Source: Cyanidioschyzon merolae
Taxonomy: Eukaryota
Assembly (NCBI GenBank): GCA_000091205.1
Contig: AP006485.2
Length of the DNA: 64,000 nt
Strand: one strand, 5' to 3'
A model generated the notes under the pieces. It worked only from the letters and a program-made list of their open reading frames with translations, made no database searches and had not been told where the DNA came from. Each line of letters opens with the position of its first letter. The stretch's first letter is position 1. The translations under genes were made by a program, and so were the position numbers. Of this stretch, positions 2,446-64,000 are shown piece after piece.

Positions 2446-3286
2446 TTTCCGGGGAACCCCGGTTAGACTTTTCGAGTGTATACCATAGAAAAATGGATCA
2501 CTGTTGTGAGGTCATTGTAGTTGACTCGTGAACGCGTTCGTGCAACGCTCGGTGCGACTCCACCAGTATCTGCGTCCGTCTATGTGTGTTCGTGTGTATC
2601 AGGGCATATGTTTTTCAACAAGTTCTGCGCATTGCTTTGCGACGCACATCAACGCCTGCGAAAAGCGTACACCATACCGTCGATACCGGGACTACGCGCT
2701 CAACCGCTGCGTCCGTCACTGCCACTAGACGTTGAGCCGCGCTCTCAGCTCTCCAGGCATTCATCTGCCGTATTCATGTTGCTGAGACTCCAAGAACTGT
2801 AGACCTAGCATGACAGTAAATGTTCACGTGCAGAGAGATGAGAAACTGCAGAGAAATACGAACCTTTCATATGTAGATATTAGGGATTGTGTAGCCTGCA
2901 CAGCATATCAAGCTTGTACTGCTCATCTCTACACATCCCATACAAAGCAAAACGAGACCCGGCTCCAGTCTTATATGCCAAATACCTCCTTTCCCGCACC
3001 TGCAATACCTTGTCAGTTCCATGCGAGTCTCCCATTCAAGAACGTCAAGACGAGAGCCTTGTTGCTACGAAGGTGCCGCGAACACTGCGGCGTCGACCGC
3101 ATCCAGAACACTCAGGTTTTCCGTTTAGTTGTTGCCCGAGCGACTGGATGTTTTGGACTTTTCCCGCAGATGCGAAACATCTTCGCCAAGACTCGATCCG
3201 AGAATAGCTCTCAGCGCAACTCTAGCGCGAATGTGAGAGATCGACCAACAGCCGTTCGGGAAACGGGTAGTTCGCAGACAAAACGC

Positions 3287-9963: not shown

Positions 9964-10701
9964 TTAAATCAGTTTCTTTGCCCTGAAGAAAGCGTTGAGG
10001 TAGCGTGCCTGCCAGATACCTGCTCCGATCATAACCAAGCAAGAGATGATGCTGTACCAGAGCACGCGCCGCGACACCGACTCGTTGATTGAGCGCATAG
10101 CCTCTTCACGAGCCCGCATATGCTCCAGTTCTTCCAGAATGGACTTCACTTCATCTTCCATGCGCCGCAGGGCGATTTCCAGGTTATCAAGGTGCTCTAC
10201 CTTGGCTACTGTTGAGTAGTCCTTCGCCGCGGCTCCCGTACTGACGTGGAGCGTAATTTTGCGTTTCGTCTCGGGCCCGTCACCGTTTTTTCCCGAAAGG
10301 CAAAACTGGTAGTTGTAGGTAGGCCATACGTCTCCGTAGTTTTCGTCGAACTCTTGGTGCTCTTTGTCCGCCTCTCCAACGTTACCGTGCGGGTGCTGAC
10401 CGCGCTGCGGTCCCGCTGGACTCTCGAACGTGAACTTTCCCTGATCGATGTTGTCTTTTTGAAAGATTACCTTACCGTCAGGTCCAGTGACCACCAGCTC
10501 GACATCAAGTTTACCTGGGCCGGCAGTGACGAGGTACTCGCCTAGAACGCGGGTCCCCGCGGTCACGTCCTCGCTGAAACACTTCTTTTGGCCACTTTTC
10601 AGGAAAAACTGAAGCGCGCCCGTCACCGGAACCCGAGCTAATACGCCCAGCACGAGCAAACACCAAACCAGAGTACACAGTCTACGCGAAACCGACGACA
10701 T
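9964..10701 (-). CDS. p24/emp24/gp25L (TMED) cargo receptor with GOLD domain; ORF open to 10929, likely start ATG 10701 (signal peptide MSSVSRRLCTLVWCLLVLGVLA)
   Basis: Architecture is signal peptide, GOLD-like beta region (LQFFLKSGQKKCFSEDV...), coiled coil, a single C-terminal TM helix (VLWYSIISCLVMIGAGIWQARYLNAFFRAKKLI) and a short cytosolic tail, as in the p24 family. Confidence 0.8.
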   Translation of the reverse strand: MSSVSRRLCTLVWCLLVLGVLARVPVTGALQFFLKSGQKKCFSEDVTAGTRVLGEYLVTAGPGKLDVELVVTGPDGKVIFQKDNIDQGKFTFESPAGPQRGQHPHGNVGEADKEHQEFDENYGDVWPTYNYQFCLSGKNGDGPETKRKITLHVSTGAAAKDYSTVAKVEHLDNLEIALRRMEDEVKSILEELEHMRAREEAMRSINESVSRRVLWYSIISCLVMIGAGIWQARYLNAFFRAKKLI

Positions 10702-11029
10702 TCTTGCCACGAGCGCTCGGATCCAGGCCTTGAGTAACGTCTGAGATGCGAGCACTGCCCGTTGTGTGATTGTTTGCGTGCGAGGGTGCGTTTGTGTCGG
10801 TATACCACCGGTAGAGCGGGCGCACAGTCGAACGATGCCACCGGTGTACAGAAGCGGCGAGAAACCCGCTTTCGAGGAAACGTCTCCAAGTGATGTGCAG
10901 ACGCCCCCTCGTCTTTCTCGGCGGGCCATCTTCTACTGATTCCAAGTTTTTCTCATATAGTTCGACTTGGGAAGGTTGTCCAACAACGTTCCCTCCTGTG
11001 GACTCTGGAGGTCTTTTCTCCATTACCAA

Positions 11030-13089
11030 TCATCTCCGTATATTGATTGCGGCGTTAAAGTCTCGGTTAAAAACCTCCATCCGTTTCTTGCGATTGGAAG
11101 TTGTACTCACTAATGCAAATAGCCCCTGCACTTTTGCCCTCCTTTCCATTTGCTCCTCCGTCAGCGGTCCGTACTTTGCTATATCCTCATGGCTCCTCTG
11201 GCACTTTTCCATCTCCACCCTCTGAAGTGTACACCCCAGCTCGTGGTGTGTATAGGACGTTCGGAACTCATCTATCGGTATTATAACAAAACGCCGTGCA
11301 CACTCCTTGCACGTTCTTGTCGTTGGAGCTGGTGTACACCCTTTTTGGGTCTTCCATCGCCCTGCTCCGTATGCCACTACCAGCCTCTGATTTTCATCCT
11401 CCTTCAGGGCACTCAACTGATTGAAAAAATTCGCGAGCGCCCGCTGCTTTCCACAATACAAATTCATTCGCAAACGAGCCCACCGGGGCTTTGCATACTC
11501 CTCGCACAGCGTATCTCAATGAGGAACGCGAACTTCCATGAATTTTCGAAAAGCTGCAAAGTCCGCTCCTCGGCTCGTCACCTCGCTCAAAGCTTCCAGG
11601 TGATCCTTCATTCCTACATTCCATGCAGCAATTTCCTTCCTTGCATTCATTGTTCCCGGTTCTCGATAGTATATTGCTCTCGAGAACCTCAAAAAAGACG
11701 CATGTCTTTCTGACGTAAGTTACCATCAGCACTATCTTCCGTACGCTTCGGTGCTGCGATGGTTATGATATTCGTATTCCCAGGGTCCGCGCCGACGACA
11801 AAGTCGTTATCCTGCACTTTCTGCGTGGCAAAATCCTCCTCCTTCTCATCTTCATGCATCGCCACGCCAACGACAAAGTCGTTAGCTTGCACCTCCTGCG
11901 TCGCAGCACCCGCCTCCTTCTCATCTTCATCGTTCGTCACGCCAAAGACAAGGTCGTTATCATGCACCTCCTGCGTCGCAGCATCCTCCTCTTTGTTTTC
12001 TTCATGCTTCGCCGCGTGAACGACAAGATCGTTATCCTCTACCTCCTGCATCGCTGGATCCGACTCCTTCTCATCTTCATGCTTCGTAACGGGCGAAGCC
12101 GAGGGCGGAACTGGACGATTTTTCTTCAAGCGCCGATATTGTACACACGTGGCTACTCCATCGGTTTCGATCATCCCAGTGAATACCTTTTGTTTGCTCA
12201 CTTCAGATGTTTGAAATCGAAGATATTCTTCCAGTACGTCTCACGATTTTCGCCGGAGAACTCCTCCTTGTTAGCATTGAACACCGGACTGATCTCCCTC
12301 ATGATGCCGTAAAGGATTCTGGAGTCCATACTCACAAAATGTGACTTGATGTTGCACATTGGAACCACGTTGAAGCGCTTCCCCACTAGGGCAGCCTTCC
12401 ATCTCTCCCACGCTTCATTTTTCCCCACTCAGCTTCACCTCTGCCTTGCGTTCGAGTTCACGGTCCAAAAACACGAAATACCGCAGGACGAGGCGATAGT
12501 ATCTTTCCTTATCTTCTCTCAACTCTGATATCTTGTCTGTTGGATTCGCTAACTCCAAGACTGCGCGGTGCTCTTGTATAGCCGCACGGATTACAGAAGC
12601 TTCATTTGTGCCCCTGCGTGACGCCTTCTCTCCGACGAATTCGATCTCATCTTCATGCTTGCGATCGTTCGTGATGCCGTTGATAATCGCCCATTTTCCG
12701 TTACGAGAGATGCCCGGGTACAGTGCAAACACGGCGCGTATCATGAAATGTTCGAGGTTCATTCTGAAATGGTTCTTCAGATTCGTCAGGTACTTCATCG
12801 CCCCATATGTGTAGATATCCGCGTCACCACTGTATCGGGTACCCTCGAGGAGGAATTCCGCGAAGTTTTCGTGGAGGACTTTCACCCGCTTATTTTCCCT
12901 CCGCGCTTCCTCTATGCCAAGCATCAAGTGACGAAAAAATGTGTTGTCGAAAAACTCGTCCGGAAGCTCGACCGTTTCCATGTTCGTCACGTAGCGATAC
13001 ATCTCCCTCACCAAATGCGTCGGTCCTGAAGAAGCCTTTATCATACTCATGGAGTACGACTCGAGACGGTTTTTGATGGCGTCCCGCAA
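11030..13089 (-). pseudogene. TnpB/Fanzor-like RuvC plus zinc-ribbon nuclease gene, near full-length but split over at least four reading frames (frameshifts)
   Basis: The C-terminal piece (11030-11473) ends ...CKECARRFVIIPIDEFRTSYTHHELGC...NRDFNAAINIRR*, i.e. a zinc ribbon, a TS-motif and the D-x-NAA-x-NI RuvC-III block typical of IS605 OrfB/TnpB and Fanzor. An upstream piece (11689-12201) carries FVVGADPGNTNIITIAA, which is RuvC-I GxDxG-like. The N-terminal pieces 12198-12428 and 12415-13089 are clean but joined by +1/-1 shifts at homopolymers (ggggaaaaa, aaacaaaag). A 26-aa x4 tandem repeat sits just before RuvC-I. Confidence 0.6.
11830..12125. repeat. About 78-bp x4 tandem repeat in-frame inside the Fanzor-like gene (peptide unit DNDLVVxxxxHEDEKEEDAATQEVx)
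   Basis: Repeated protein units in ORF 11689-12201 and a matching nucleotide periodicity (...gacaaagtcgttatcctgcac... recurring about every 78 bp). Confidence 0.7.
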
Positions 13090-13642
13090 CTTTTCCTTCT
13101 ACGGATCCTTGATATATTTAAGAACACAGGCTTTCACCACTATCTCGTTGTACAGTTGCCTTTCTTGCCGCCTTCGACGTAGAACCTCGCCCCCTTTTGA
13201 TTCCTCATCACTTCCTGTTCCTTTTCGCTCCGCCATGTTTATCCTTCTTTTCCGACGGCCGGCGATATCGGCCCTCCGGGATCCTCCACTTCCATTTCCA
13301 TGACTTTCCTTTTTTTATTTTTTTTGAAAACGAACGCTCTTTGAACGCTTCTGTTATATACTTCGAAAAAACACTTGAATATACTCAATTGAGGGTCGGA
13401 ATAGGATGGAACAAAAAACCTATACTTTGCTACGACCTCAACGCGAATACAACTTTTACAGTAGAATAGCACGCCAGTGATCAGGATCACTGTTCCCCTC
13501 AGGAGCGACCAGAGCGTCGTGTCTCGTGCCCGCCGGATCTGCCAGGTGCGCGTGCACGCGCAGCGGCTGACATGCGCCCCGCCGCCGATCAGGAGATTGC
13601 TTCTGGATATGTCTATCTCAAAGCGTGATAACCTGTTGCTGA

Positions 13643-15529
13643 ATGAACGCTCACCACAATGACTGGACTCCCGATAAAGTATTGGATACAGTGAGGGAAT
13701 ATGTAGACGCTGGAGCACTGTCGGAGTGTGCGGCACTGGACTTGCTGGAGCGTTTGCCGTTACCGCTGCTGGGCTGGACACTGGAGGAGTACGCGGTGCG
13801 GGCGTCGCTCGAGGCTTCAGACAGCGACGCGGTACCTTCTGACAACATATTTGATTCCATGCAGGTATTAACGAAAACAATGGAGAAACTGGTCAAGCTC
13901 TCTGCAACAAGTGCCCGAGTGCGTCACGTCGTACCTATAGAGCAGGTGCTCCAGCTCATCCACCTCGGTCTGAGCAGCCGGTACCCGCTGGTACGCACAG
14001 CTGCGCTCCGTCTGCTTTGTCTCCTTCTTGAACGGAATGACTTGCCTGAAGCGTTTTGTCAGCAAGTTGCAGACACTATTATCGAACGTTTTGAAAGTAC
14101 GAACGAGCTTCGTCCGGAGATAGAGGCCGCACAAGCGCCAGGTCCAGAAGTGAACGCTCCCAGCACAACTGCACAGCACGCCAGCGATATCCTGTCACTG
14201 GTGCTGCTGAGCTTCCGTGATGATCCATCCACCGAAGCTGCGGGAATTTGTGAAAAAATCCTGAAGAACCTGGTACAGCTGAAGCCGTTCCGCGGCGCAG
14301 TTGTGCTCTTCAGCGAAGCACGAGGCGCGCAAATCCTCGTACAGGAGATGCTCTCGGGTGCAGCGGGTGCGGTTGCGCATATCCGAGCCTTGAACTTGCT
14401 GCTTGAGATCTGCGACTACTCGTCTGTTGCAGAGATTGCCGCACGTCGGCTGTTGCCAACCGTGCTTGTAGCCAAAATCGCAGCTCCTGTTCGTTTGGAT
14501 GAGGACTTGCTACTCCGCTTGAACTTGCTGGATGTGCTTGGGGCTTTTATGCAACGCAGTGCAATAGCAGCCGAGTTGCTCGACCAAATTTCGGTATTCG
14601 ATGTGCTGCTACGCCAACACCTTGCCTATTTGTTGGCGCCAGACGAGCCTGCCTCGAGCGACTTGGCGGAACGCTGGTTTATTTGGATGTGTGGGATTCT
14701 GAGGTTCGTGCGCACCAGTGCCGGCTCCAGCCGTTGCGCCTTCCACGCTTGGATGAACGCCAGTCTCGTAGAGATTCTTGGGCGCTTTCTCTTGGTTCAC
14801 GTGGTAGATGGCGAGACTGAGACAGCACACTGGTCCGTACAACTTGATCAAGTTCGTCGGACGACGCTGCTGGTGCATCTGATCTCCGCGGTAGGCGCTC
14901 TGGGGCTCTGTGAACGCGGGATGGACGTGCTGCTTGCGGACGTTGACACCTTGAAACTAACGCTTCGTTTCATTCAAACGGCGAGCGTGTGCGATATTCG
15001 AGTGGCCTCCTTGCGCGCTTTGAGTGTGTTCCTGGCAGGTCTCGACGAGCCGCTTTCATCAGCAGCCGTCTCAGGGTACGGAGCCGCCGAATCCGACCTC
15101 GAATTTCGGCAGCAAAGGGTGCTGCATCTGTTCACTGATGCGATCAGGGATGCGGATCCCGTCAAGGCGTTCACGAATGCACTGCCCATTGTCCTGGACT
15201 GTGCACGGCATCCTTCGGAAGAAGAGCGGCTGGCTGCTGCGGCGGTATTCGCTGCGCTAAGTCTGTCGAGAATCGGAGTTGTCGCGTTGGCTAGTATGGC
15301 GGGCTTTGTGGAATGGCTCTGCGACCCGACGGACGCTTCTCTCGAGGTCCTGGAAGCTAAGATGCGCGTTGCACGACGCCTAGTTGAGCTGCACGCCAGT
15401 GACGGAGAAGTCGCATTCGGTGCGCTGAAATGGTCACGTATTGTCGCCGTGGTCTCGAATGGAAGCGATCCTCGAGCTGTGCGTCAGCGGCGCGTGCCTG
15501 CTGTAAACATTGCCACTCTGAATCGTTAG
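13643..15529 (+). CDS. Hypothetical ARM/HEAT-repeat-like protein (628 aa); function unknown
   Basis: Long clean ORF in GC-rich coding composition, with leucine-rich helical repeat character (LLCLLLERNDLPEAF..., LNLLLEICDYSSVAEIAARRLLPTVL...). No diagnostic motif recognised. Confidence 0.5.
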   Translation: MNAHHNDWTPDKVLDTVREYVDAGALSECAALDLLERLPLPLLGWTLEEYAVRASLEASDSDAVPSDNIFDSMQVLTKTMEKLVKLSATSARVRHVVPIEQVLQLIHLGLSSRYPLVRTAALRLLCLLLERNDLPEAFCQQVADTIIERFESTNELRPEIEAAQAPGPEVNAPSTTAQHASDILSLVLLSFRDDPSTEAAGICEKILKNLVQLKPFRGAVVLFSEARGAQILVQEMLSGAAGAVAHIRALNLLLEICDYSSVAEIAARRLLPTVLVAKIAAPVRLDEDLLLRLNLLDVLGAFMQRSAIAAELLDQISVFDVLLRQHLAYLLAPDEPASSDLAERWFIWMCGILRFVRTSAGSSRCAFHAWMNASLVEILGRFLLVHVVDGETETAHWSVQLDQVRRTTLLVHLISAVGALGLCERGMDVLLADVDTLKLTLRFIQTASVCDIRVASLRALSVFLAGLDEPLSSAAVSGYGAAESDLEFRQQRVLHLFTDAIRDADPVKAFTNALPIVLDCARHPSEEERLAAAAVFAALSLSRIGVVALASMAGFVEWLCDPTDASLEVLEAKMRVARRLVELHASDGEVAFGALKWSRIVAVVSNGSDPRAVRQRRVPAVNIATLNR

Positions 15530-16239
15530 ACCAAGGGCAGCATCGGCGATCGACACAGCGCTCTGCACGTTGAGCGCGACTCGTGTGCTTGCCAATGACC
15601 GGGCTTGGAGTCGCAGGGGAACCTGCTCGTCAGCTATCAGGTGCCGTGGACCTGGTCGGGATCGGTAGCATCTGCAGTCGTGCGGTCCAAGCGTCAGACA
15701 GCACCGTGCTGACAACAAACGCCTACTTGGCGCGCTTGTACGACAGGACGCTGTGCAGAAGCATGTTTGGTGTCGTTTTCGACGATCTGAGGATCGATGC
15801 AAGGTGCGTCTTCGAGGAAGGCATGCTCGGACGGCAAAACTTGGGTACCAAGGGCACTTCGATGCCTGTTCGCATCGATCGCTGGTATGCTGCGTATCTG
15901 GTAGAGGCGAATACCGTACATAGAGGTATGCGCTGGTGCGTCCGTTCACCGTCTCGATCCGCTGCTGGTACGCGGCTGCGTTAGAATTTCGAGTACCCGA
16001 CGCTGTTACGACGTAAAGGCGCTTCGGTTGATAGTCTTTCAACTCAATTTTGTTTCATCGCGGCTACGGTATATAGGAGGAGGACGAAATCACTAGGTAA
16101 TGTTCTGTATAGATTGTGGAGGAATTGCATACGGCATATGTATTCTTCACTGAACAATGCAATGATGATTGCATTGCACCTCGATGTCAATCATACCACT
16201 ATACGCAGATGCTGAACGAGCACTGAAAGAAACAAGTAT

Positions 16240-16608
16240 ATGCGCTCCGGGCCGAAACCTGATATTCTCAAAGCCTGCCTGCAATCAGTGATAGAAAACG
16301 ACCAGTTGATCAATTTACGGGAAGCAAATGCGTCCATAGTAGCCACCACGGGCGTCTCTGTTTCGCAACAGCTTATTCGCGTGATCCTGAAAACACCGGG
16401 ATCCAATCGCAATAAAGTGCTAGTTCATTCACAGCCAGCTTCTACCGAAATCGCAGGCACGGTGTTCCTGGAACGTCGCGATCGGTATGAAGCACAGGAA
16501 CATCAGTTTGTTTTCTCACTCGATGAGACTTGCTTCAAACGAGACAATCGCAGCGTAGATGAATACTTGCTGAGCGGGAGCCCGTTGCTCGTACGCTCGA
16601 AATCGTAG
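16240..16608 (+). mobile_element. Tc1/mariner-like transposase N-terminal fragment (HTH plus first catalytic-Asp region), degenerate
   Basis: HTH-like SIVATTGVSVSQQLIRVILK followed by FVFSLDETCFKRDN, which resembles the Tc1/mariner xFSDExxF block holding the first DDE Asp. It lies in an AT-rich island (about 15980-17600) next to Fanzor relic copy 2. The ORF is truncated. Confidence 0.35.
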
Positions 16609-17139
16609 AGAACGTCGACATCATCATCTGTTCTAGCTGCGGTGGATTCATTTGGCTGCCTCAGTTCCGCTGAAGAGAACACTCATGCAGCAGCGCCCTC
16701 TTTTTGTAGAGTCATTGAAGACTTGTCCCAGACGTCTGGTGAAGTCCTTCTATTGGACATAGTGGTATTTAGCCGTTCTGCTTCAGTTCGAGCATTTTTA
16801 GATTCTTTCGAGGGGTAGAGCTGGTTTCATTCCTTCTTCTCAACCATGGTTCATCCCCATAGAAGAAGAGTTTTGCGTCCTGAATCGTCACGATCGCTCC
16901 ACCGGGCGAATTGATGAAGCGTTCAGCACATGGTGACCAACCGGGGCACATTTGGTCTTTATTCCGCATGTGCTGCTCGATGCGGGAAGGTCGTCATCTC
17001 AGGCTATAAACAAATGCGTTCATTTTCGAAAAATCTAAGGGATGAGCTGGAATATACACCCTAGGATGTTGAGTTGGAGCGAGGCCAGTGGAGCGTTTCG
17101 TCGACAGATCAGCACGAAGAGCTAACAGAGCACCCAATG

Positions 17140-17252
17140 GCACAGCGTACACGGCTTCGTGGTCTCCTTGTATCGATTAGTTCAACCAGTGGCAACAAAC
17201 ACATGGAGTTCACGAACCGAGACTTTAACGCTGCGATCAGTACAAGACGGTG
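17140..17252 (+). pseudogene. TnpB/Fanzor-like C-terminal relic, copy 2 (RuvC-III block only)
   Basis: RLRGLLVSISSTSGNKHMEFTNRDFNAAISTRR aligns residue-for-residue with copy 1 AKVQGLFALVSTTSNRKKRMEVFNRDFNAAINIRR. Confidence 0.55.
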
Positions 17253-17795
17253 TGCGATGCTAAAGACGATACCCGATTGGCAGACGCGATCTAACTTTGT
17301 GGAGCAGCCTCTTAGGCATAAAATAAACAACGAGAAAATGAAACCGATCGCAGACAGCCGGTCTAAACAGACTGGAAGGCGTCTTCGAGTGGATTTTCAT
17401 CTACGCTCCATGGTTTTGAGGCATTCCTTTTTGTCTCACTGACGATGAGCCTAATCGAGAAGGAAATCAAGGCCAGTATCTGATATCGAAACTTGTTGCT
17501 GCCCAACAGATAGATTTAGGGTTCGTTCTTCTGTATCAGAAAACCTAGAGTGCGGCATCCGCGTATTCTGTATCCAGATATACTCACCCGCGAATAGCTG
17601 CCGCACTGCCGTGGCATTCGGGCGATATCTGTCTTTCAGACAACATTCTCGCTTCCACGCAAAGCCCCTGACGCACAGGCCGCGGGCAGCACAACCAGTA
17701 CCTGCAGAGAACATCGTGCAACGCTCCCCAGCGTTTGAAATCTGTCGAGGTTGCCGTGCTCTCGCTCCGATGAAAGCTCCAAACGCATGCAAAGC

Positions 17796-21238: not shown

Positions 21239-23035
21239 AGAGATCGCTGGACACAAATCTGGGCAGTTGCACGTCGAACAAGGCGTTGGGTTCGCAGCTC
21301 CTGACCGACAGCCTCTAAGGACGTGCACGCTGCAGCATTCGCTCCGAGTCCGACGAGATCAGCAGCAAAGCAACCCCGTGGATATTCGTCCACGACCCGT
21401 GACGCATAGGTCGAAAGTGCCGCACCGAACCAGACGCGCTCTTCAGTACACTCGGACTGCTTGATTAACAGGATGTTTACGCCCGGTATCCGCGCTTGCT
21501 CACAAGTTTGTTATCCGCGTCCGCCAGCGCGTCGATACGGAACTTTCGAACTGGGCGATAACAAAGCCGCTCCGCGAGTCTCAGATGCAAGGATACGGTT
21601 AGCGCTGCAGCAGTTGCAACGCTGGAAGCTTGTTTATATGATTCATTTAGGTTCAATATTGAACAATAGTACCCCATCCATGGGCATTCATGATTGTCGC
21701 TAGGTGCTGCTGCTGCTGCTGGGCACTTTCCCGTGCACGACCATTCGACATAGCCGTGATTCATGTGTACCAACCGGGACACGAGGTTGCTATCCAGCAC
21801 CTCACCATGTATCCAAGCGCGGCTCGTCGTCCTCTCGTCCGTTCAAAGGCAGAAAATCAGTAAGCATTTGCAGACGCGCTCGGGAGTGAAGTCTGCTCGG
21901 GGTCTAGGTGCGCTCACCGCGCGGAGGTACACCTGCAGAGCCGATCAGCACGCTCCGCAGCGGCAGCGAGTCGAGGTTCGTCGACGGAATTTGGAGTCAT
22001 TCGGTCTCGGTGAAGCGACGATGGTGACGGAGCATCCATCGCCACCGCGAGCGTGTGAGACAAGCACGGCATCTGGAAGTTTCGTAGATCGATGGAGCAG
22101 GCGGTAGCCATCGGTATCCAAAGCGCCGCGGTAATCGCTTCTCTTGTCGGTAACAGCAAGCACACATCCGAAGAAAAATCCTGGTCGATGTATTGATCCT
22201 AGACCGCCAAAGGGTATTGCAACGACACCGCCACGGGGCAAGCATGCTTTGCTTTTACTTGAGCATGAATGCTTTCGCACTGCGCTTGTTGTGTGCACTA
22301 TCCTAATATGGTTTATCCCAGCGCCTTTGCGAACAGTGCTCCGCTCTTAAGATCACACTGCGCACCCAATCGCGACTGGTACTTGTTTAATCTACGAGCG
22401 CGGTTCGACACGCAACGATCCATTGATGACGTTGCATGGGCGATTGGCGCTCGCGTCTAGTTCAAGCATCCTTGCTGCTCATATGGGGCCACTTTGGCGA
22501 GCTTTCGACGTGCTCGCGCCGAAATGAGTGTCGGCTTCTGCGAAAGATGCAATGCGCAGCTCGAGGATTGGCACATGCCACTTTTGTAATGGGCATGCTT
22601 TTGCGTCCAGCACAGGCGTTAGGGATCGTCGTGAGCAGCCTCAGTGGGCAGTCGCTTGCGTGGCAAGTCCGAATGCACAACAACGATGCGTTGATTACCG
22701 TTCGTGGCCGTTTTTCGCAACATGCACATGGACTGATTTTGAAACAAAGGTCTCGCGTCACTGAAAAATGCTTGAGCGCCGTCTACAGGTTGCTGCGGCT
22801 TCGGATGCCGGCAACGCCGCGGTGATACCGGAGAGGCGGCCTCGCGGCACGATTTCGTCCCTGAGGGTTTCGCATCACCTGCTCCATTCCTGCTCATCGC
22901 CAGCGCCCGCCGTGCATCTTCTATGGCATTCACGACAGCTATAGCGCTTCGTGGAAATCCTTCGGGGTCTGCATCGCACGCCAGGTGCCAGTAGATAGCG
23001 CACTCAAGCACGCTGCACGCGAAACACCTGCAGAG

Positions 23036-23310
23036 AGCACTCTCTCATCGGATGAGCGAGCGTCTCGCTGTTCCACGTGCCTGCATCATAGATGAAGCGT
23101 CCAGGCATATGGACTCAAGTTGCTGACCGAACTTTCTCTGATAGCGCCTCAGCTGGGTGGCATTGCCTTCGGGATAGCACTCTCTCATCGGATGAGCGAG
23201 CGTCTCGCTGTTCCACGTACCGGCATCATAGATGAAGCGTCCAGGCATATGGACTCAAGTTGCTGACCGAACTTTCTCTGATAGCGCCTCAGCTGAGTGG
23301 CATTGCCTTC
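23036..23310. repeat. 140-bp x2 tandem duplication copying the last ~40 codons plus stop of the downstream minus-strand gene
   Basis: agcactctctcatcggatgagcgagcgtctcgctgttccacgt...ggcattgccttc occurs twice back-to-back. ORFs 23045-23248 and 23185-24330 end with the same peptide NATQLRRYQRKFGQQLESICLDASSMM..RGTARRSLIR. Confidence 0.85.
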
Positions 23311-27778: not shown

Positions 27779-30223
27779 CTTCTCGTCGTCGTCGTTACCC
27801 ATTACGTCGTGCATCCAGACCAGAACCCATCGACTGCGATCTGCACGACTGTCTACTCGTCGATCCGTCCCACTACATACCTCCTCTGAGCAAAGATATC
27901 AGAGGAGACACAGCGTGTGAAGTTTCGCGCATTCGGCACAAACAATGACGAGCACACACGAGTGCACGAAGGAGAAAGCACGCTCCTGGAGGATATCGTC
28001 AAGCGTTGAAGGACACACGATCGATTTCGAACTGAAACGCGAAAGCCTTGAGGTGGAGCGGCGGATGCTCGTCTCAGTCGACGAGACGTTATTCAGGACA
28101 AATGGTCAAACGATGTGTGCGTACTCAATGTGGAGCAAACTGTTGTGTATGAATAAACGGAAACCGAGCGTGACGTCAACGCGAGCTCTCGGGGCAGTTC
28201 AGTGGAGCGCTTTCCCACATAAATCACAGAATCGATACGCTCGTTCAACACAGCATCCTTCGTTGAACCACGCTTCGTGGCTTCTCCGTCCCGCATTCCT
28301 CTGTCCAGCTGCTGCACGGCAACTTCGCTTTCCGCCACTCACAAGCGGTCAACAAGTGCGCTGCTGAGACTGGCGACGAGCTGCCCTTCGTGACAACCAC
28401 TGTTCCCTCGTTCAGTGCAGTCGAATGCCTCCGCTCTGTTCGCAGAGGCAACGTCTGCGCTCTCGGATCCATAGACGGGTCATTCGCGTGCACGATGCGG
28501 TTCGTTCATAAACCGTTATTTCGACAGCCGTGCTCGCTCTCCTCAACCGCTAATCTGCTCTGTTGGTTCTGTGTTCGAGAACCGGGGCGAACGGAAGGCC
28601 GCACTTCGGTCCATGAGCGCGCACACCGTGGAAAAGAGGAGCAAGCGCCAAGTAGGCAGCAGTGGATACATATATCTTTAGGAAAGGCACGCTCCGGTCC
28701 CGTCGTGCACCCCGTGCGCCCGAGTCCTGATGAAAACTAACCGATATGGCGCATCGTGATGATACACATGCCAACCTGCCAAATGGAGGACTCGCACTGG
28801 AAACCACCAGGCAGGCAAAGAAGCAAGAATGCTCCCGAATACGGGGACGAGCAGCGCCTGGAAGGAAAAATATCGGTGCAGCTATTGCTCAGTCTGGAAC
28901 GGTCATCATAGCCTCGCTACCGAAACACACATCAACCGGGAGAATCACCCAAAAAGGAAGATACAGGGCGCCCTAAGGGGATGCGTAGCTTCTGACTCGA
29001 GCAGGGCTCGCTCAGCTTCCTTCGCTTTGACGTACCCTGTCAGGGTACGGCGCGTCGGCATCACCGGTGCAGCGCTGTCAGCTGTTCCAAAGCGTCTTGA
29101 AGGTTTCGATCAAACCGTCGTGCGACAACGTAACGGACACTCAGGGCAGACGATGCGAACCGTCCTGATTGTAGGATCAGTGATGTGTATACACATTTCA
29201 CAGAGGACCTCGAAGTTTCGGTGCGCCTGTCGTCGCTTCGAAGACCTACAGCGTCGGTGCCAATACGTATCAACGTGAATCCCCGAAAGCCGAAATCATA
29301 GGCAGGCTCGTGTCGGGCGCTTCATGAGGCGCTGTATGTGCGTATTCGCGCCTCAGCTCACGGGCCCAGACTCGTGGCGACTAGTTCAAATGAATCTGCG
29401 TAACAGATACGCTACGAGTTTCCAGGCGGCGCATGTGAACCGTCTTTGGCAAGAGTACATGGGAGCGCGCCGGGGTTCACAACGGTGTCTATCGTAAAGA
29501 GGCAGGAAACTTGCATTCGGCAACGTGTTGAATGCGTTGCAAGACAAGGAATGGACTTGAACGTCGCGTTGTTTGATCGTAGCGTATTGGGCTGAGCGTG
29601 CTGTAGGACGCGAAAAGCGCACCCCTGTTCACTCGACAAGAGCGTACACCGAGTGCAGGAATCTATGCTGCACGGTATCTATCGAATCGTTCAGAACGAC
29701 ATACGAACACCGAGAGTGGGCGTGCACTGTGAAACTGGTAGAGAGGAAAACGCTGAAACACGGCTGAATGCACTTCATGGTGTCCAGTACGCTGAGCGAA
29801 CTTCACATACCGAGGCACTCGATGATCAGAGTCGTTGCTGTAGCGTACATCCAGCAGCCGTCGTAGGGAGACGCTCAAGCACATGCTGCACCGAGACTCT
29901 AATGCATCGATGAACCTACGGAAATGTCTTGCGCTTCCAGAATGTCTACCGGGTTGATGTCGAGCGAACGTTCAAGTAACTGTTTCGAACTCGGACGAGG
30001 GAACGTCTCGAAACAATGAAGCCTTTGGGTGAGAAAAAATGTGGCAAGGGTAGCTGGCATTGGATTCTCGCCTGAAGCAAGGCACTTGTATGGTACATTT
30101 CGCAAGGCAAAGTGACTGAAGCGCCCTATGTCTATATAGGTACCGGGACCAGTGTTCCTGTGTCATTGGTGAGCAGTAAAGATGATCCAGTATTCGATAC
30201 TTTGAGCATACTACATTTCGATG
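27779..30223. repeat. Large direct repeat copy B (partner of 1-2445)
   Basis: Colinear about 98-99% identity to 1-2445. Similarity ends at 30223 / 2445, and the flanks beyond are unrelated. Confidence 0.9.
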
Positions 30224-42474: not shown

Positions 42475-42935
42475 AGCCCAGCTGAGAACGTCACCGGTTG
42501 TGGTATGGAAGCCAAGAGCTAGCGAGTTTTTCGACGCGCCGCAGCGTCGATGCTACGATCGGGATTCAAGCAGCAGTGGGCGCTTTTCGAGGAGGAGTCA
42601 GCTGATTCGTTGGTAGGAATAACGAGGATTTCTTTTGTTCTTTTTGACGGAAAGATTGTTTATAGGAATCCTTGGGAGCCCATACTGATCAGCGCACGTT
42701 AGCTTCTAGGGAAGCGCGTGGCACAGAGCTTCGTGGATACGGCACGAGACCGCTCGGGAGTAGATTTCGAAGGTTGCGTTTCATTATCAGGAATCGCAAT
42801 CTAATGGAAGACAGCGCACTTTATGTATGCATGAAATAAGTTCAGTATGCAACGAATCATTGTCTTGCAACAGAGTGAGCACTGGAGGCGCCTCCCAAAG
42901 AGACCCTGGGTGCTCTGAAAGCGCTTCGACAATAC

Positions 42936-43497
42936 GTCAGCGTTGGAAAAGACCTGATTTCGGAAACAGATAAGAGAAGCAGAACCTTCGCATATGTTTC
43001 GCAGGCCGATGATGTATCAGCGTTGGCAAAAAGACCTGATTTCGGAAACAGATAAGAGAAGCAGAACCTTCGCATATGTTTCGCAGGCCGATGATGTATC
43101 AGCGTTGGCAAAAAGACCTGATTTCGGAAACAGATAAGAGAAGCAGAACCTTCGCATATGTTTCGCAGGCCGATGATGTATCAGCGTTGGCAAAAAGACC
43201 TGATTTCGGAAACAGATAAGAGAAGCAGAACCTTCGCATATGTTTCGCAGGCCGATGATGTATCAGCGTTGGCAAAAAGACCTGATTTCGGAAACAGATA
43301 AGAGAAGCAGAACCTTCGCATATGTTTCGCAGGCCGATGATGTATCAGCGTTGGCAAAAAGACCTGATTTCGGAAACAGATAAGAGAAGCAGAACCTTCG
43401 CATATGTTTCGCAGGCCGATGATGTATCAGCGTTGGCAAAAAGACCTGATTTCGGAAACAGATAAGAGAAGCAGAACCTTCGCATATGTTTCGCAGG
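42936..43497. repeat. Minisatellite, 82-bp unit x about 6.8
   Basis: Unit gccgatgatgtatcagcgttggcaaaaagacctgatttcggaaacagataagagaagcagaaccttcgcatatgtttcgcag recurs with exact 82-bp spacing, about 460 bp upstream of the GlnRS start on the opposite strand. The overlapping ORFs are repeat artefacts. Confidence 0.95.
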
Positions 43498-45063
43498 CGT
43501 ATTGCGGTGAGCCGTTCTAGTGAGTCCACGAGCGATCATGTCTTCCAACCCGAGAATCATCTCTAGAGTCCGGATGGCTTTCTGGTGTGTGTCCTGGGTT
43601 CTCCAGTGGCACCGGAGAGCTCCCGTTCCGTCGAGGTGTCATCGTCTGGCGGTGATCACCAGCGCCCCTTGAACGTTTTCTCGCCATTAACCGACGCTCA
43701 CCAGCATGTGGCTGCATTATTCGAGCTCCATGTCATACGTGAACCATGAGGTTACCTGAAAGAGCGTCTTGAAATCAGCCAGAGCTTCGTTATCAAGAAA
43801 GAGGGATACATCGACATGACCTGATGGAATGTGACAAGGTCCCGTGGGTAAACTAGGGTTTTTTATAGTTACCGAATGGTATTTGCGCATCCAAAACGCC
43901 TGGATCAGTCGCATCAGTCCTGCTGTCTCAAAGAGAGAATCGTGCCCTCGTAAAGTGCATACCTTGCACAGCCGCTGACACATGCATCAAAAGTCGCCAA
44001 GTTCTAGTCTCTGACACCGTGGTCATTGCTCTGGAAACCCCGCTACGCCCCGTGTTCCTGAGTTCAAGTCGTTCCAATAGATGCTGAGGCAGCATTGCGG
44101 ACAAATCGCTTTACATGGCTATGCAGGTATGTTTATCCTGGTGTACCTTTTCCAAGAGGTGCTGAACGCGCATTTCCGAAAAATCCCTTTACACGACTCT
44201 CCAGTCATATTTATCCTGATCGTCGCCATGCATGATTGGAAGCACAGCACTCAGAGCCACATCGACATGGAAGGACGCGTAATGCTTCAGAGTAACAGCA
44301 ATGCGATGCGGGGGCATGAACCAGTGCTTTGAAAAACACCCAACCTTAACACCTCTCTCAGATGAGTTGTATTTCTCCATTCCAAGGATAACCGAGAGCT
44401 TTGGGTCGCGATATGATCCCCACACTGGTGCGAGGTAGCCATACCGTTCTCGCTCTGCGAAGAAACCGGTCGTTCATGGATACAGAAATAGTATCCAATG
44501 TGTTGAAACGTGTGTCGCATGATGTTCGTCATCGCACAGCGTCTTTGATGCTAAACTACACTGAAGCGAACAGAAGCGTTTAAAGACAAGTTCCAGGATA
44601 AATGAGCTCCACCAGTTGGGTAACTTGTATGCCGAGCCGACCCCATTCGAACGTGTCTCTCTCTGAGGATAGAGGCAGAGATCCGCTCCTTCGGACCTGA
44701 GTGACGTTCGATTCCGCTGGTAGAAGCGGCTCAGGCGGTACTGCGTTGGCCTTGGCGACACCGTCTCCACCTTTGAGTATACGTAGCGCTTTGCGGGGCG
44801 TCTTACAGTTTCGCGCTTCGCGAACAAGACTCCTTTCGGTTCCGTTTCGTGCTACTGGCGAGTGCTGCTGCGTTCGCTTCAGCTGGTGCAACAGCGCGTC
44901 GGCACGAGTTTCGGGAACGAAAATGCTACGCTTGGGTTTCCTGCTGGGGCCGTTCGCTCCTAGTCACCGAACCTGCCCCTTTTCGAACTTTCAACGAGTC
45001 TACAGGGCAACGAGCAACGCTGAACGTGTTTTTCTGTTTCGCACCGGGAGGGCAAGTCTATCC

Positions 45064-51306: not shown

Positions 51307-51717
51307 TTACGACAGTGTCCTTTTCCTATCTCTCATCTGAGGCTCGGCATTCGCCAGTTTATCGCATCCCTCTACCGCTATCTTCAACAGTCGCTGGATA
51401 TTGATGGCTGCGTTAAAGTCTCGATTTCGCTGCTTGGGGCATTTCTCGAAACCTATGATGTCGAGATGGTCGTTGCGATCAACGCTTCGCGTGACATGCT
51501 CATCTTGTTTGCATACGGTATCAGAGAACGCTGAGCGACCGTGACTCAGATGTCTAGCGGGGTCTTGCTTTACGACCAGCAGGTATGCTTCTCCGAGAAT
51601 CGCATTGTGGTACGTGAACGCCTGCTTCATGATTCGTTCCTTGCTCTTGACGGGCACAGGAGGTTCCATTCGTTTTCTATTTTCGTTTCCGTTTCTGGTG
51701 CCGTACCCTAGGGTCAT
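51307..51717 (-). pseudogene. TnpB/Fanzor-like C-terminal relic, copy 3 (zinc finger plus RuvC-III)
   Basis: ...TVCKQDEHVTRSVDRNDHLDIIGFEKCPKQRNRDFNAAINIQRLL... The nucleotide block gcgttaaagtctcg is shared with copy 1. It lies in an AT-rich island between divergent genes. Confidence 0.55.
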
Positions 51718-62633: not shown

Positions 62634-64000
62634 GCTGCTTACAGCGGCACGCCTCGCGGTTTCCTATGCCTCTCGCGGTACTCTCGAGGCAGCGGCTGCA
62701 GCGCAACGAACCCGCACCCTGCAACCTACGTGTACGCTGGTGAGTACGGCACACCGGTGCTTCACCAGAACCTATCGCTTTTGGCGTGCTAGCATGCAGT
62801 CCGACAGCCGACGAGCGTTCTACGCCGAGCGGTGTTTCCCGGAACACTAGTATTAGCACGCTCTTTTCTGTTTCTGTTTGTTGGTGTTCGCAGGTACACC
62901 GCGAACAGATTGTACGCCACGAACCGGCAAAAAGTTCCGTAAAAATTTAACGATATCATTGGAAGTTGGCCGTTGCCGCATTACTTGTACAAGGCAGTTA
63001 TTCTGCGGTCAGTAGATAGGTGGAATACCCAACTTGTCGTGACCCGTGGAGAATTTCGTCCACCAAAGCCAGAACATATCGAGTTCTATTGTCACGAATG
63101 TCGCCTCGTCCATTGATTCCACTCCATACGTTCTTGAAGAACTATCAGCAAAGAGGCCACAGGATGTGAAGCCTCCGTACCAACAGTACGAACTGAATTG
63201 AAGAGACAAGGCTGGGCACAGGAAACCAGATGCTTCAGTGTGAGTCCGTCACGCTCGGAACCGTACACCGTCGAGTGCGTACTTCATTGTGAACCCTAAC
63301 GACAGAAGCGACAGCTGATGATCTCATCGCAAGAACATGCATCCAGTGGAAACGGTAGAACAGTGTATGGGTTGTCGAAGAGGGCCAAACCGCCGTTTTG
63401 CAACAGAGGGACGAGGAAGTGTTCCGAAAACATCAGCGTTTGGAGCGAGTTTTTCGTGTGCTCTCCCATGATTCGCCAGAAGAGGTGAATCGTTCAGCAC
63501 CACAGCCTTTGTCGACAAAGTACGCATCGTGGCTCTATCGTCACCGATTTCTCGGACCTGCTGATTGGCAACATCGCTTTCCATCGCCTAAAACCGATCA
63601 AAGCGTGCCCGACTGAGACTGGTGCTAAGCTGCTCACCGGTCTAGCCTGTTCTGCTTATGTCAACCCAGTCAAATGCGTCTCCTCTATTGTCGAGCGCAT
63701 TTTTCACCCGCACCTAACAGTGAACGAGTCGTTTGCATGCGTGAAACCGGAAGCTACAGGACGACATTAAAAGTCGCGTTGCTTCTTCTTCGAATAAGGC
63801 TCGCTCAGCTTCTTTCGCCTTGACGCATCTTGCCCAGCAATTATTCGTTTAAATTACGGGCGCACGGTTGCAAGCTGGGTACATCCCTCTAAAATTTTCG
63901 ACCAAATCCACGTGAGGCAACTGATGATCTGGAGAGGAAATCCAACACTGCCTGATTGAAGGATCCTGGATTTGCGCAAACGACAACCCGAGTTTCCTGA

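Follow-up and report, generated by a model that had tools for sequence, protein, structure and literature searches.

We identified a degenerate Fanzor1 element in the genome of the red alga Cyanidioschyzon merolae 10D, on a 64,000-nucleotide stretch of chromosome 3 (contig AP006485.2, assembly GCA_000091205.1; hereafter the window). Alignments place the whole element on the minus strand at 10801-13561, with a 3' limit that is uncertain and lies somewhere in 10801-10826, and identify it as a degenerate unit of the family CMe-1A without the 5' module TE-N2_CMe. We conclude, with a probability of roughly 95%, that it is an old, fixed and non-functional copy of this published Fanzor1 family, which carries neither a transposase nor terminal inverted repeats (TIRs). 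The window copy has no nuclease function; it is a relic that has been fixed since before the sampled strains diverged. A previous interpretation made from the letters of the window (the sequence-only reading) had proposed a Fanzor/TnpB-type element at this place, and both the match to CMe-1A (86% in DNA, 72-80% in protein) and matches to solved Fanzor1 structures confirm this proposal.

CMe-1A is the single Fanzor1 family of C. merolae and comprises ~150 copies, each ~80% identical to a consensus of 3169 bp that encodes the 734-aa CMe-1 Fanzor1 protein; it has no TIRs and no transposase, its target site duplications are undetermined, and some old copies are still intact (PMC3627910). The consensus DNA and protein used here were taken from the supplementary files of Bao & Jurka 2013. 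Blastn and global alignment showed 85-86% DNA identity between the element and consensus positions 658-3144/3169, so that the aligned share of the 3169-bp consensus is 79% and the absent part is the TE-N2_CMe module. BLASTP aligned the frame-corrected translation collinearly to residues 1-734 of CMe-1 (72% identity over 1-448 and 80% over 405-734). Both marks of membership in CMe-1A, namely an identity of at least ~80% over most of the length and a protein collinear with CMe-1, were thus found. The window copy further shares with the family the same organism, the lack of TIRs and transposase, and the typical divergence of ~14-20%. It differs from the consensus in lacking TE-N2_CMe, in having four coding-repeat units where the consensus has one, in eight lesions that break the open reading frame (ORF), and in the loss of the 3' arm of the terminal hairpin.

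A repeat search found no TIRs at the element ends, and inside the element there is no further ORF with a family match, hence no TnpA (Y1 HUH or serine recombinase), in agreement with the earlier description of a solo element without a recombinase. The span proposed earlier, 10931-13490, proved too short at both ends, as homology extends from ~13561/13553 to ~10826-10801; window positions 13553-10826 are homologous to the metagenome copies L001 and L002. Searching with the frame-corrected translation yielded 47 protein relatives with 54-81% identity, all from hot-spring-type metagenomes, including a near-complete 752-aa ORF (P0001) in which only the first residues are absent. At the DNA level, 368 related stretches were found in metagenome contigs, and the family comparisons below use ~46-48 distinct copies drawn from 80 metagenome loci. 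Host genes flank the copies in L001, L002 and L083-L088. The family has been known since the 2013 publication, and the copy itself is ordinary.

The 5' 635 bp of the CMe-1A consensus are known to represent another repeat, TE-N2_CMe (PMC3627910). Since the consensus has 657 more 5' bases (TE-N2_CMe) than the window copy, and some metagenome copies carry this module contiguously (L002, L016, L025, L065), the window copy could be a 5'-truncated piece of the full 3.2-kb CMe-1A rather than a complete short-form unit. We consider this unlikely, though it is the strongest of the alternatives. The 5' ends of the copies fall into two classes, one at consensus 1-7 (TE-N2 included) and one in a tight cluster at 638-688 to which the window copy belongs; the ends of copies without TE-N2 are therefore clustered and not scattered. 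Moreover, the short-form junction is preceded by at least four different recurrent sequences (two other repeats besides TE-N2 in forward and in inverted orientation), which argues for a modular junction and not for random truncation. A few copies, the window's among them, have unique DNA upstream of this junction, and in some copies (L051, L058) TE-N2 is also found downstream of the 3' end. As the upstream contexts are themselves a few recurrent repeats, the number of independent insertion sites is too small to infer a target-adjacent motif or a target site. The published consensus thus looks composite, and the common unit (~2.5 kb, with leader, Fanzor1 ORF and 3' end) appears to begin near consensus position 646. 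At the 5' junction of this unit, the sequence of the window copy reads as a 14-nt perfect GC palindrome, GCGCGTGCACGCGC (13548-13561, minus strand); a 5' palindrome of at least 5 bp occurs in just 12 of 40 distinct copies and is a weak feature.

The age of the short-form unit in the window is given by its orthologous locus in environmental relatives. Metagenome contig L083 (ENA ERZ27247228) is collinear with window positions 15098-9001 at 98.0% identity and includes the flanking gene CMC074C, the whole element and the flanking p24 gene, while L084 (JGI 3300005573) covers positions 13082-9001 at 98.2% identity; environmental contigs also encode a protein identical to p24. The insertion is present in every relative retrieved for the p24 locus, none of which represents an empty site. 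All eight lesions recur in L083 (8/8), and L084 has every lesion that lies within its coverage. Because they are shared with independently assembled relatives, the eight lesions are real and older than the strain split. The element differs from the family consensus by 14%, and this divergence, together with the lesions common to relatives, indicates that it is old and not a recent pseudogene. The sequence-only reading was right that the ORF is broken; its view that the decay is recent is not compatible with a 14% distance from the consensus and with lesions common to strains that differ by 2-3%.

The element fills ~2.74 kb of the 2.94-kb spacer between the divergent genes p24 and CMC074C, with p24 in the same orientation and its start 100-125 bp downstream of the element 3' end; the other end lies ~80 bp from the start of CMC074C. 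A secondary role of the dead copy would weigh against our reading of it as non-functional: it might have been co-opted as a promoter (supplying promoter elements, for example), an untranslated region or an insulator for p24 or CMC074C, and be kept on that account. The filled spacer, the retention of the insertion at the orthologous locus in environmental relatives and the 99-bp spacer between element and p24 start (10702-10800), which is 100% identical between 10D and L083, all speak for such a role. However, the element body differs by 3.3% between 10D and L083 and the neighbouring intergenic DNA by 0.7%, which is the opposite of constraint, and an old insertion can become fixed without a function. 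In the same comparison, the coding sequences (CDS) of CMC074C, p24 and the N-myristoyltransferase gene (NMT) differ by 1.4%, 0% and 0.1%, respectively. The element is at least unconstrained, changing faster than its flanks, and co-option appears improbable.

The ORF of the element is one long broken minus-strand frame that lies between ~13561 and ~10801 and runs through three frames. Four in-frame stops interrupt it: a TAA in the N-terminal Lys/Arg-rich stretch (13239-13241), a TAG in place of a Tyr codon (TAC; 13099-13101), a TGA in place of a Trp codon (TGG; 11516-11518) and a TGA in place of a Cys codon (TGT; 11030-11032), beyond which the ancestral ORF ran ~52 codons further. The first two are shared with L083 and the last two with both L083 and L084. 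Alignment with the consensus also located four frameshifts: +2 in AAAAGGGGGCG (13189-13190; identical context in L083), -2 in GGGGAAAAA (12422-12423; same break in L083 and L084), -1 at 12204-12205 and +2 in CTTTTTTG (11695-11696), the latter two in identical context in L083 and L084. The sequence-only reading had described a gene split by +1/-1 shifts at homopolymers; the four in-frame stops come in addition to the shifts.

Three of the four shifts coincide with homopolymer runs (GGGGG, GGGGAAAAA and TTTTTT), as expected if the gene were intact in the organism and its breaks were sequencing or assembly errors; short introns, programmed frameshifting or read-through would be other ways to keep it intact, and the sequence-only reading had offered homopolymer errors or introns. 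We give this explanation almost no credence. Four nonsense codons were born by substitution (at Tyr, Trp, Cys and one further codon), and indel errors cannot make these; the same lesions recur in the independent metagenome assemblies L083 and L084; and the 14% of sites that differ from the consensus include the tail and the 3' hairpin. No intron fits either, as the shifts of +2, -2, -1 and +2 come without intervening sequence.

The features of an intact Fanzor1 gene can nevertheless be followed along the decayed frame, all on the minus strand. A non-coding 5' leader (13302-13547) aligns with consensus ~660-905. Three-frame translation, the CMe-1 protein and BLASTP place the original start ATG at 13299-13301, with MEMEVEDPGG for the consensus MEKEVEDPGG; the start at 13089 assumed earlier is thereby replaced. 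Translation and BLASTP assign 12090-13098 to the N-terminal, non-RuvC half of Fanzor1, which is spread over three frames and holds ORFs of 224 and 76 aa, the former (12415-13089) being the clean N-terminal ORF that the sequence-only reading had named. On inspection, an N-terminal basic stretch, KKRK...RRQRLQERR, resembles a nuclear localisation signal. Directly before RuvC-I, tandem-repeat detection (TRF), a repeat search and the consensus alignment revealed an in-frame tandem repeat of four 75-bp (25-aa) units (11790-12089) that ends in DNDFVVG. Its acidic 25-aa unit reads ...HEDEKE..ATQEVQDNDFVVG, and the unit number varies within the family, always in frame: one in the consensus, three in P0007, four in the window and P0001, and five in P0010.

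The catalytic motifs follow. RuvC-I is GADPG (11779-11793, inside FVVGADPGNTNIITIAA) and keeps the catalytic Asp codon. The canonical RuvC-II strand reads VVAYGAG (11360-11380), in which Gly replaces the catalytic Glu; the relocated catalytic Glu lies in IDEFRT (11258-11275), is followed by the [TS][TS] motif and falls in the E656 column of the profile alignment A2 described below. RuvC-III is NRDFNA (11051-11068, inside NRDFNAAINIRR*), again with the catalytic Asp codon kept, and its longer form NRDFNAAINI spans 11068-11039. GADPG, IDEFRTS and NRDFNA are present on the minus strand as they had been quoted from the sequence. Past the last stop, tblastn and BLASTP to CMe-1 residues 683-734 recovered a remnant of the C-terminal tail, ..EKRPPE..VELYEK..RLHITWRRF (10874-11029).

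The relation of this protein to Fanzor1 was established with a wide profile, A2, which consists of P0001 and 39 full-length distant relatives (40 sequences; identity to P0001 23-40%). An exhaustive profile search returned 1464 representative proteins at E <= 0.001, and A2 matches the N-terminal half of the window gene at 13179-11668 and 12419-12183. Among solved structures in the PDB, A2 matches the Fanzor1 proteins of Parasitella parasitica (9cf0, E 2e-19), Spizellomyces punctatus (SpuFz1; 8gkh, E 1.4e-10) and Guillardia theta (9cer, E 8.4e-6). In these matches the DPG, DEFRTS and NRD..A..N motifs line up, with IDEFRTS aligned to the Parasitella Fanzor1. D484 (GADPG), G623 (AYGAG) and E656 (DEFRTS, 40/40) are invariant columns of A2, and R724 and D725 of RuvC-III are found in 39 of the 40 sequences. 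Fanzors cleave DNA under RNA guidance and have a rearranged RuvC site, in which the position of the canonical RuvC-II Glu is taken by an inert Gly or Pro and an alternative Glu lies downstream (PMC10530073); in A2, 33 residues separate G623 from E656. The sequence-only reading could not place the RuvC-II Glu confidently and found this notable in view of the rearranged site reported for Fanzors; with the published arrangement (PMC10530073), it can be placed, the Gly being that of VVAYGAG and the Glu that of IDEFRTS. Taken together, the gene shows the RuvC-I DPG Asp, a rearranged RuvC-II, the RuvC-III RD and similarity to characterised Fanzor1 proteins. Across the RuvC half, identity among 46 distinct copies decreases from codon position 2 to 1 to 3 (p2 > p1 > p3), which indicates that the family diversified under selection for protein.

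Several results weigh against the assignment to Fanzor1. Pfam applied to the five ORF pieces of the window returned only a 12-residue match at RuvC-III to PF07282 (OrfB_Zn_ribbon, now Cas12f1-like_TNB; E 0.039, 14.6 bits, cut-off 26.3 bits) and no match to OrfB_IS605 on these pieces; five close relatives gave nothing, and the best match among distant relatives, again to PF07282, stayed below the cut-off (E 0.0023, 18.5 bits). The sequence-only reading had named these two Pfam families among the profiles that should test its identification: no significant match to them was obtained, yet the A2 profile supports Fanzor1, and Pfam is too insensitive to decide the membership of the CMe-1 clade. A family-only profile, A1, found no solved Fanzor in the PDB (best match angiogenin, E 0.53), and the link to solved Fanzor1 structures thus needs the wider A2. 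The Fanzor/TnpB motif also includes a C4 zinc finger between [TS][TS] and RD (Bao & Jurka 2013, PMC3627910), and no CxxC...CxxC occurs in the 40 sequences of A2. The conserved Cys there (P0001 residues 636-735) are limited to 645, 708 and 735 (the CMe family has Leu at 708), and CMe-1 reads THHELGC...EKC in the zinc-finger region. The CKEC that had been taken as zinc-ribbon evidence does not hold, being YKEC in the consensus and all relatives and hence a copy-specific Tyr-to-Cys change in a clade without CxxC...CxxC. AlphaFold2 modelling of P0001 on a shallow 18-sequence alignment gave a mean confidence score (pLDDT) of 33.3 and a global score (pTM) of 0.19, values too low to judge a TnpB/Cas12-like fold (WED, REC, RuvC, TNB).

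An origin of the C-terminal block from an unrelated zinc-ribbon family, with a merely fortuitous likeness to TnpB/Fanzor, which the 12-residue Pfam match (E 0.039) and the absent CxxC...CxxC might suggest, is excluded for practical purposes by collinearity along the full length with CMe-1, a protein published as Fanzor1, by the three Fanzor1 structure matches, which reach E 2e-19 and cover RuvC-I, the alternative Glu and RuvC-III, and by the invariant or nearly invariant D, G, E and RD columns.

The Fanzor1 family to which the copy belongs also has a distinct 3' end. In intact copies, a hairpin of 13-19 bp stands at the extreme 3' end, ~10 nt past the end of the published consensus; it is found in about 20 of 48 distinct copies (for example L024, L010, L040, L073, L068 and L062). 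Five intact hairpins, folded in the sense orientation, had energies between -17 and -30 kcal/mol (z -3.3 to -7.6), and none of 200 shuffles was as stable; their reverse complements are far less stable (-6 to -21 kcal/mol). The stems are rich in G.U pairs (up to six), which accounts for the better fold of the sense strand. This strand-specific folding fits a signal in RNA or in top-strand single-stranded DNA. An alignment of 25 intact hairpins (MAFFT, A4) separated two sequence variants whose pairing registers lie three columns apart, and the evidence for the hairpin consists of per-sequence folds and the sense/antisense comparison, given that single-structure pair counting would mislead across two registers. 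In the window copy, comparison with 47 other distinct copies showed a decayed remnant of the terminal hairpin (10801-10850, minus strand), which retains the 5' arm TGTACACCGGTGGCATCGTTCGAC but whose 3' arm has diverged or is missing; the fold of 10790-10850 is unremarkable (z -0.19).

Some results do not favour a conserved RNA structure at this end. RNAalifold predicted 0 pairs on the 47-copy alignment of 3' ends (A3), which is degraded by decayed copies and indels; Rfam, applied to the window element and the intact copy L024, returned none but a chance match to a CRISPR direct repeat (CRISPR-DR; E 0.34); and classical covariation is not countable for this hairpin, whose variants pair in different registers. 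From the folds, and by analogy with the guide RNAs of TnpB and Fanzors, whose end coincides with the right end of the element, we infer that the 3' hairpin may be the last stem of a guide-RNA scaffold, a signal for single-strand transposition, or both. In the last ~100 nt of the ORF (consensus 2951-3050, window ~11030-10930), the codon pattern flattens to 0.876 / 0.908 / 0.854 for the three positions (46 copies). This could reflect a constraint at the nucleotide level (such as an overlapping RNA scaffold), or merely a poorly constrained protein tail.

Combining the two ends, we tentatively hypothesize that the 3.2-kb consensus is composite and that the real mobile unit is a hairpin-ended element of 2.5 kb, in the style of IS200/IS605 or Helitron2. 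It would start near consensus position 646 and end in the 3' hairpin, which would be the last stem of the guide scaffold, with the guide read from the 3' flank, and its copies would serve as substrates for ectopic recombination, given the identity breakpoint at ~13000 within the window copy. We hold this combined model to be possible, at rather less than even odds. The composite, hairpin-ended interpretation concerns the family only, as the window copy is dead.

Solved Fanzor1 proteins (9cf0, 8gkh, 9cer) and CMe-1 have in common the RuvC-I DPG, a Gly at RuvC-II, a relocated Glu in (I/V)DE(F/Y)(R/K)TS and the RuvC-III (N)RD..A..N, and in both the N-terminal half is long and helical. Sequence identity between them is low, and the solved proteins have a CxxC...CxxC between Glu and RD, whereas the CMe-1 clade has none. 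TnpB of IS200/IS605 and IS607 has a homologous RuvC core and is likewise a passenger gene in a mobile element, with its guide RNA at the element 3' end; TIRs are likewise absent from IS200/IS605 elements, which carry subterminal hairpins. In contrast to prokaryotic TnpB, CMe-1A has no TnpA gene, its canonical RuvC-II Glu is replaced, its Pfam scores fall below threshold, its host is eukaryotic, and an N-terminal KKRK/RRRR resembles a nuclear localisation signal. The non-autonomous Helitron2 elements of Chlamydomonas (CRe-1, -2 and -3) resemble CMe-1A in that they carry Fanzor1 as a passenger, lack classical TIRs and end in a 3' hairpin. A Helitron2-type 3' hairpin is present in the family and absent from the window copy. 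The 5' end of CMe-1A may likewise carry a short palindrome, a weak feature seen in 12 of 40 copies. Asymmetric terminal inverted repeats were not recognised by eye at the aligned ends of CMe-1A copies, and no RepHel partner came to light, short of a search of the whole genome.

By analogy with other Fanzors, an intact protein of the family would be an RNA-guided endonuclease for double-stranded DNA with a rearranged RuvC triad; in the window copy, these residues are the Asp of GADPG, the Glu of IDEFRTS and the Asp of NRDFNA. The guide RNA would derive from the element 3' end, and the protein probably aids the persistence of the element. Its carrier is a hairpin-ended element that has neither transposase nor TIRs. 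With its ORF and hairpin decayed, the window copy cannot serve as a nuclease gene and is probably not mobilisable.

The thermoacidophilic alga C. merolae has a tiny genome with almost no introns. Exact protein look-up identified the genes around the element as NMT (BAM79010), the p24/Tmp21-like gene (245 aa; CDS 9964-10701, minus strand; BAM79011), CMC074C, an ARM-protein gene (CDS 13643-15529, plus strand; BAM79012), and a manganese transporter gene (BAM79013). The 321-aa ORF of p24, with an apparent start at 10929, is spuriously lengthened by the 3' end of the repeat; the annotated start is at 10701. The GC content is 0.44-0.53 within the element region and 0.55-0.60 outside, which agrees with the AT-rich island described from the sequence. 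Unrelated to the element, the window also contains a tandem repeat of ~9 units of 82 nt, up to 100% identical (42865-43602), and a 138-nt tandem duplication with 97% identity (23033-23310).

Other Fanzor relics occur in the window. Two direct repeats on the plus strand, 1-2445 (cut by the window edge) and 27779-30223, are 99% identical and 27.8 kb apart, and each holds a heavily decayed Fanzor1-like relic with ~33% identity to CMe-1 (E 2e-13). The A2 profile matches these relics at 1147-2167 and 28925-29945, where the catalytic DEF has become ESF. They may represent a second, older Fanzor family in C. merolae, for which Bao & Jurka list one (PMC3627910), and the near-identity of the two repeats suggests a recent segmental duplication. 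A CMe-1-like C-terminal remnant (16960-17397, plus strand; 42% identity to residues 589-730, E 4e-26) separates CMC074C from the manganese-transporter gene, and next to it ~950 bp at 16086-17025 are 70% similar to sequences beside CMe-1A copies in L077 and L063. Small Fanzor1-like fragments are found at 51382-51426 (minus strand) and 63742-63992 (plus strand); the latter corresponds to the N-terminal portion of the profile and is cut off by the window edge, where a further copy may begin.

Metagenome contig L023 contains a CMC074C-like gene, identical to that of the window at 621 of 628 aa and to the paralogue CMQ418C at 617 of 628, which adjoins a CMe-1A copy in the same arrangement; p24 is not downstream. 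Identity between L023 and the window is 97-100% from 16000 to ~13000, where it falls sharply, and amounts to 78-88% over the remainder of the element. This drop at ~13000 points to a boundary of duplication, gene conversion or ectopic recombination inside the element.

The locus itself matters little, as it holds one decayed copy, fixed between two housekeeping genes, among ~150 of a family published in 2013. It does illustrate that a TnpB/Fanzor gene is recognisable from its motifs alone, even where Pfam fails. The hairpin, the composite consensus, the variable coding repeat and the recombination breakpoint add modestly to what was known. Among them, the 3' hairpin and the modular 5' junction provide a starting point for defining the termini and the classification of CMe-1A, which were left open in 2013. 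Additionally, intact relatives from hot springs, such as P0001, might offer a Fanzor adapted to heat and acid.

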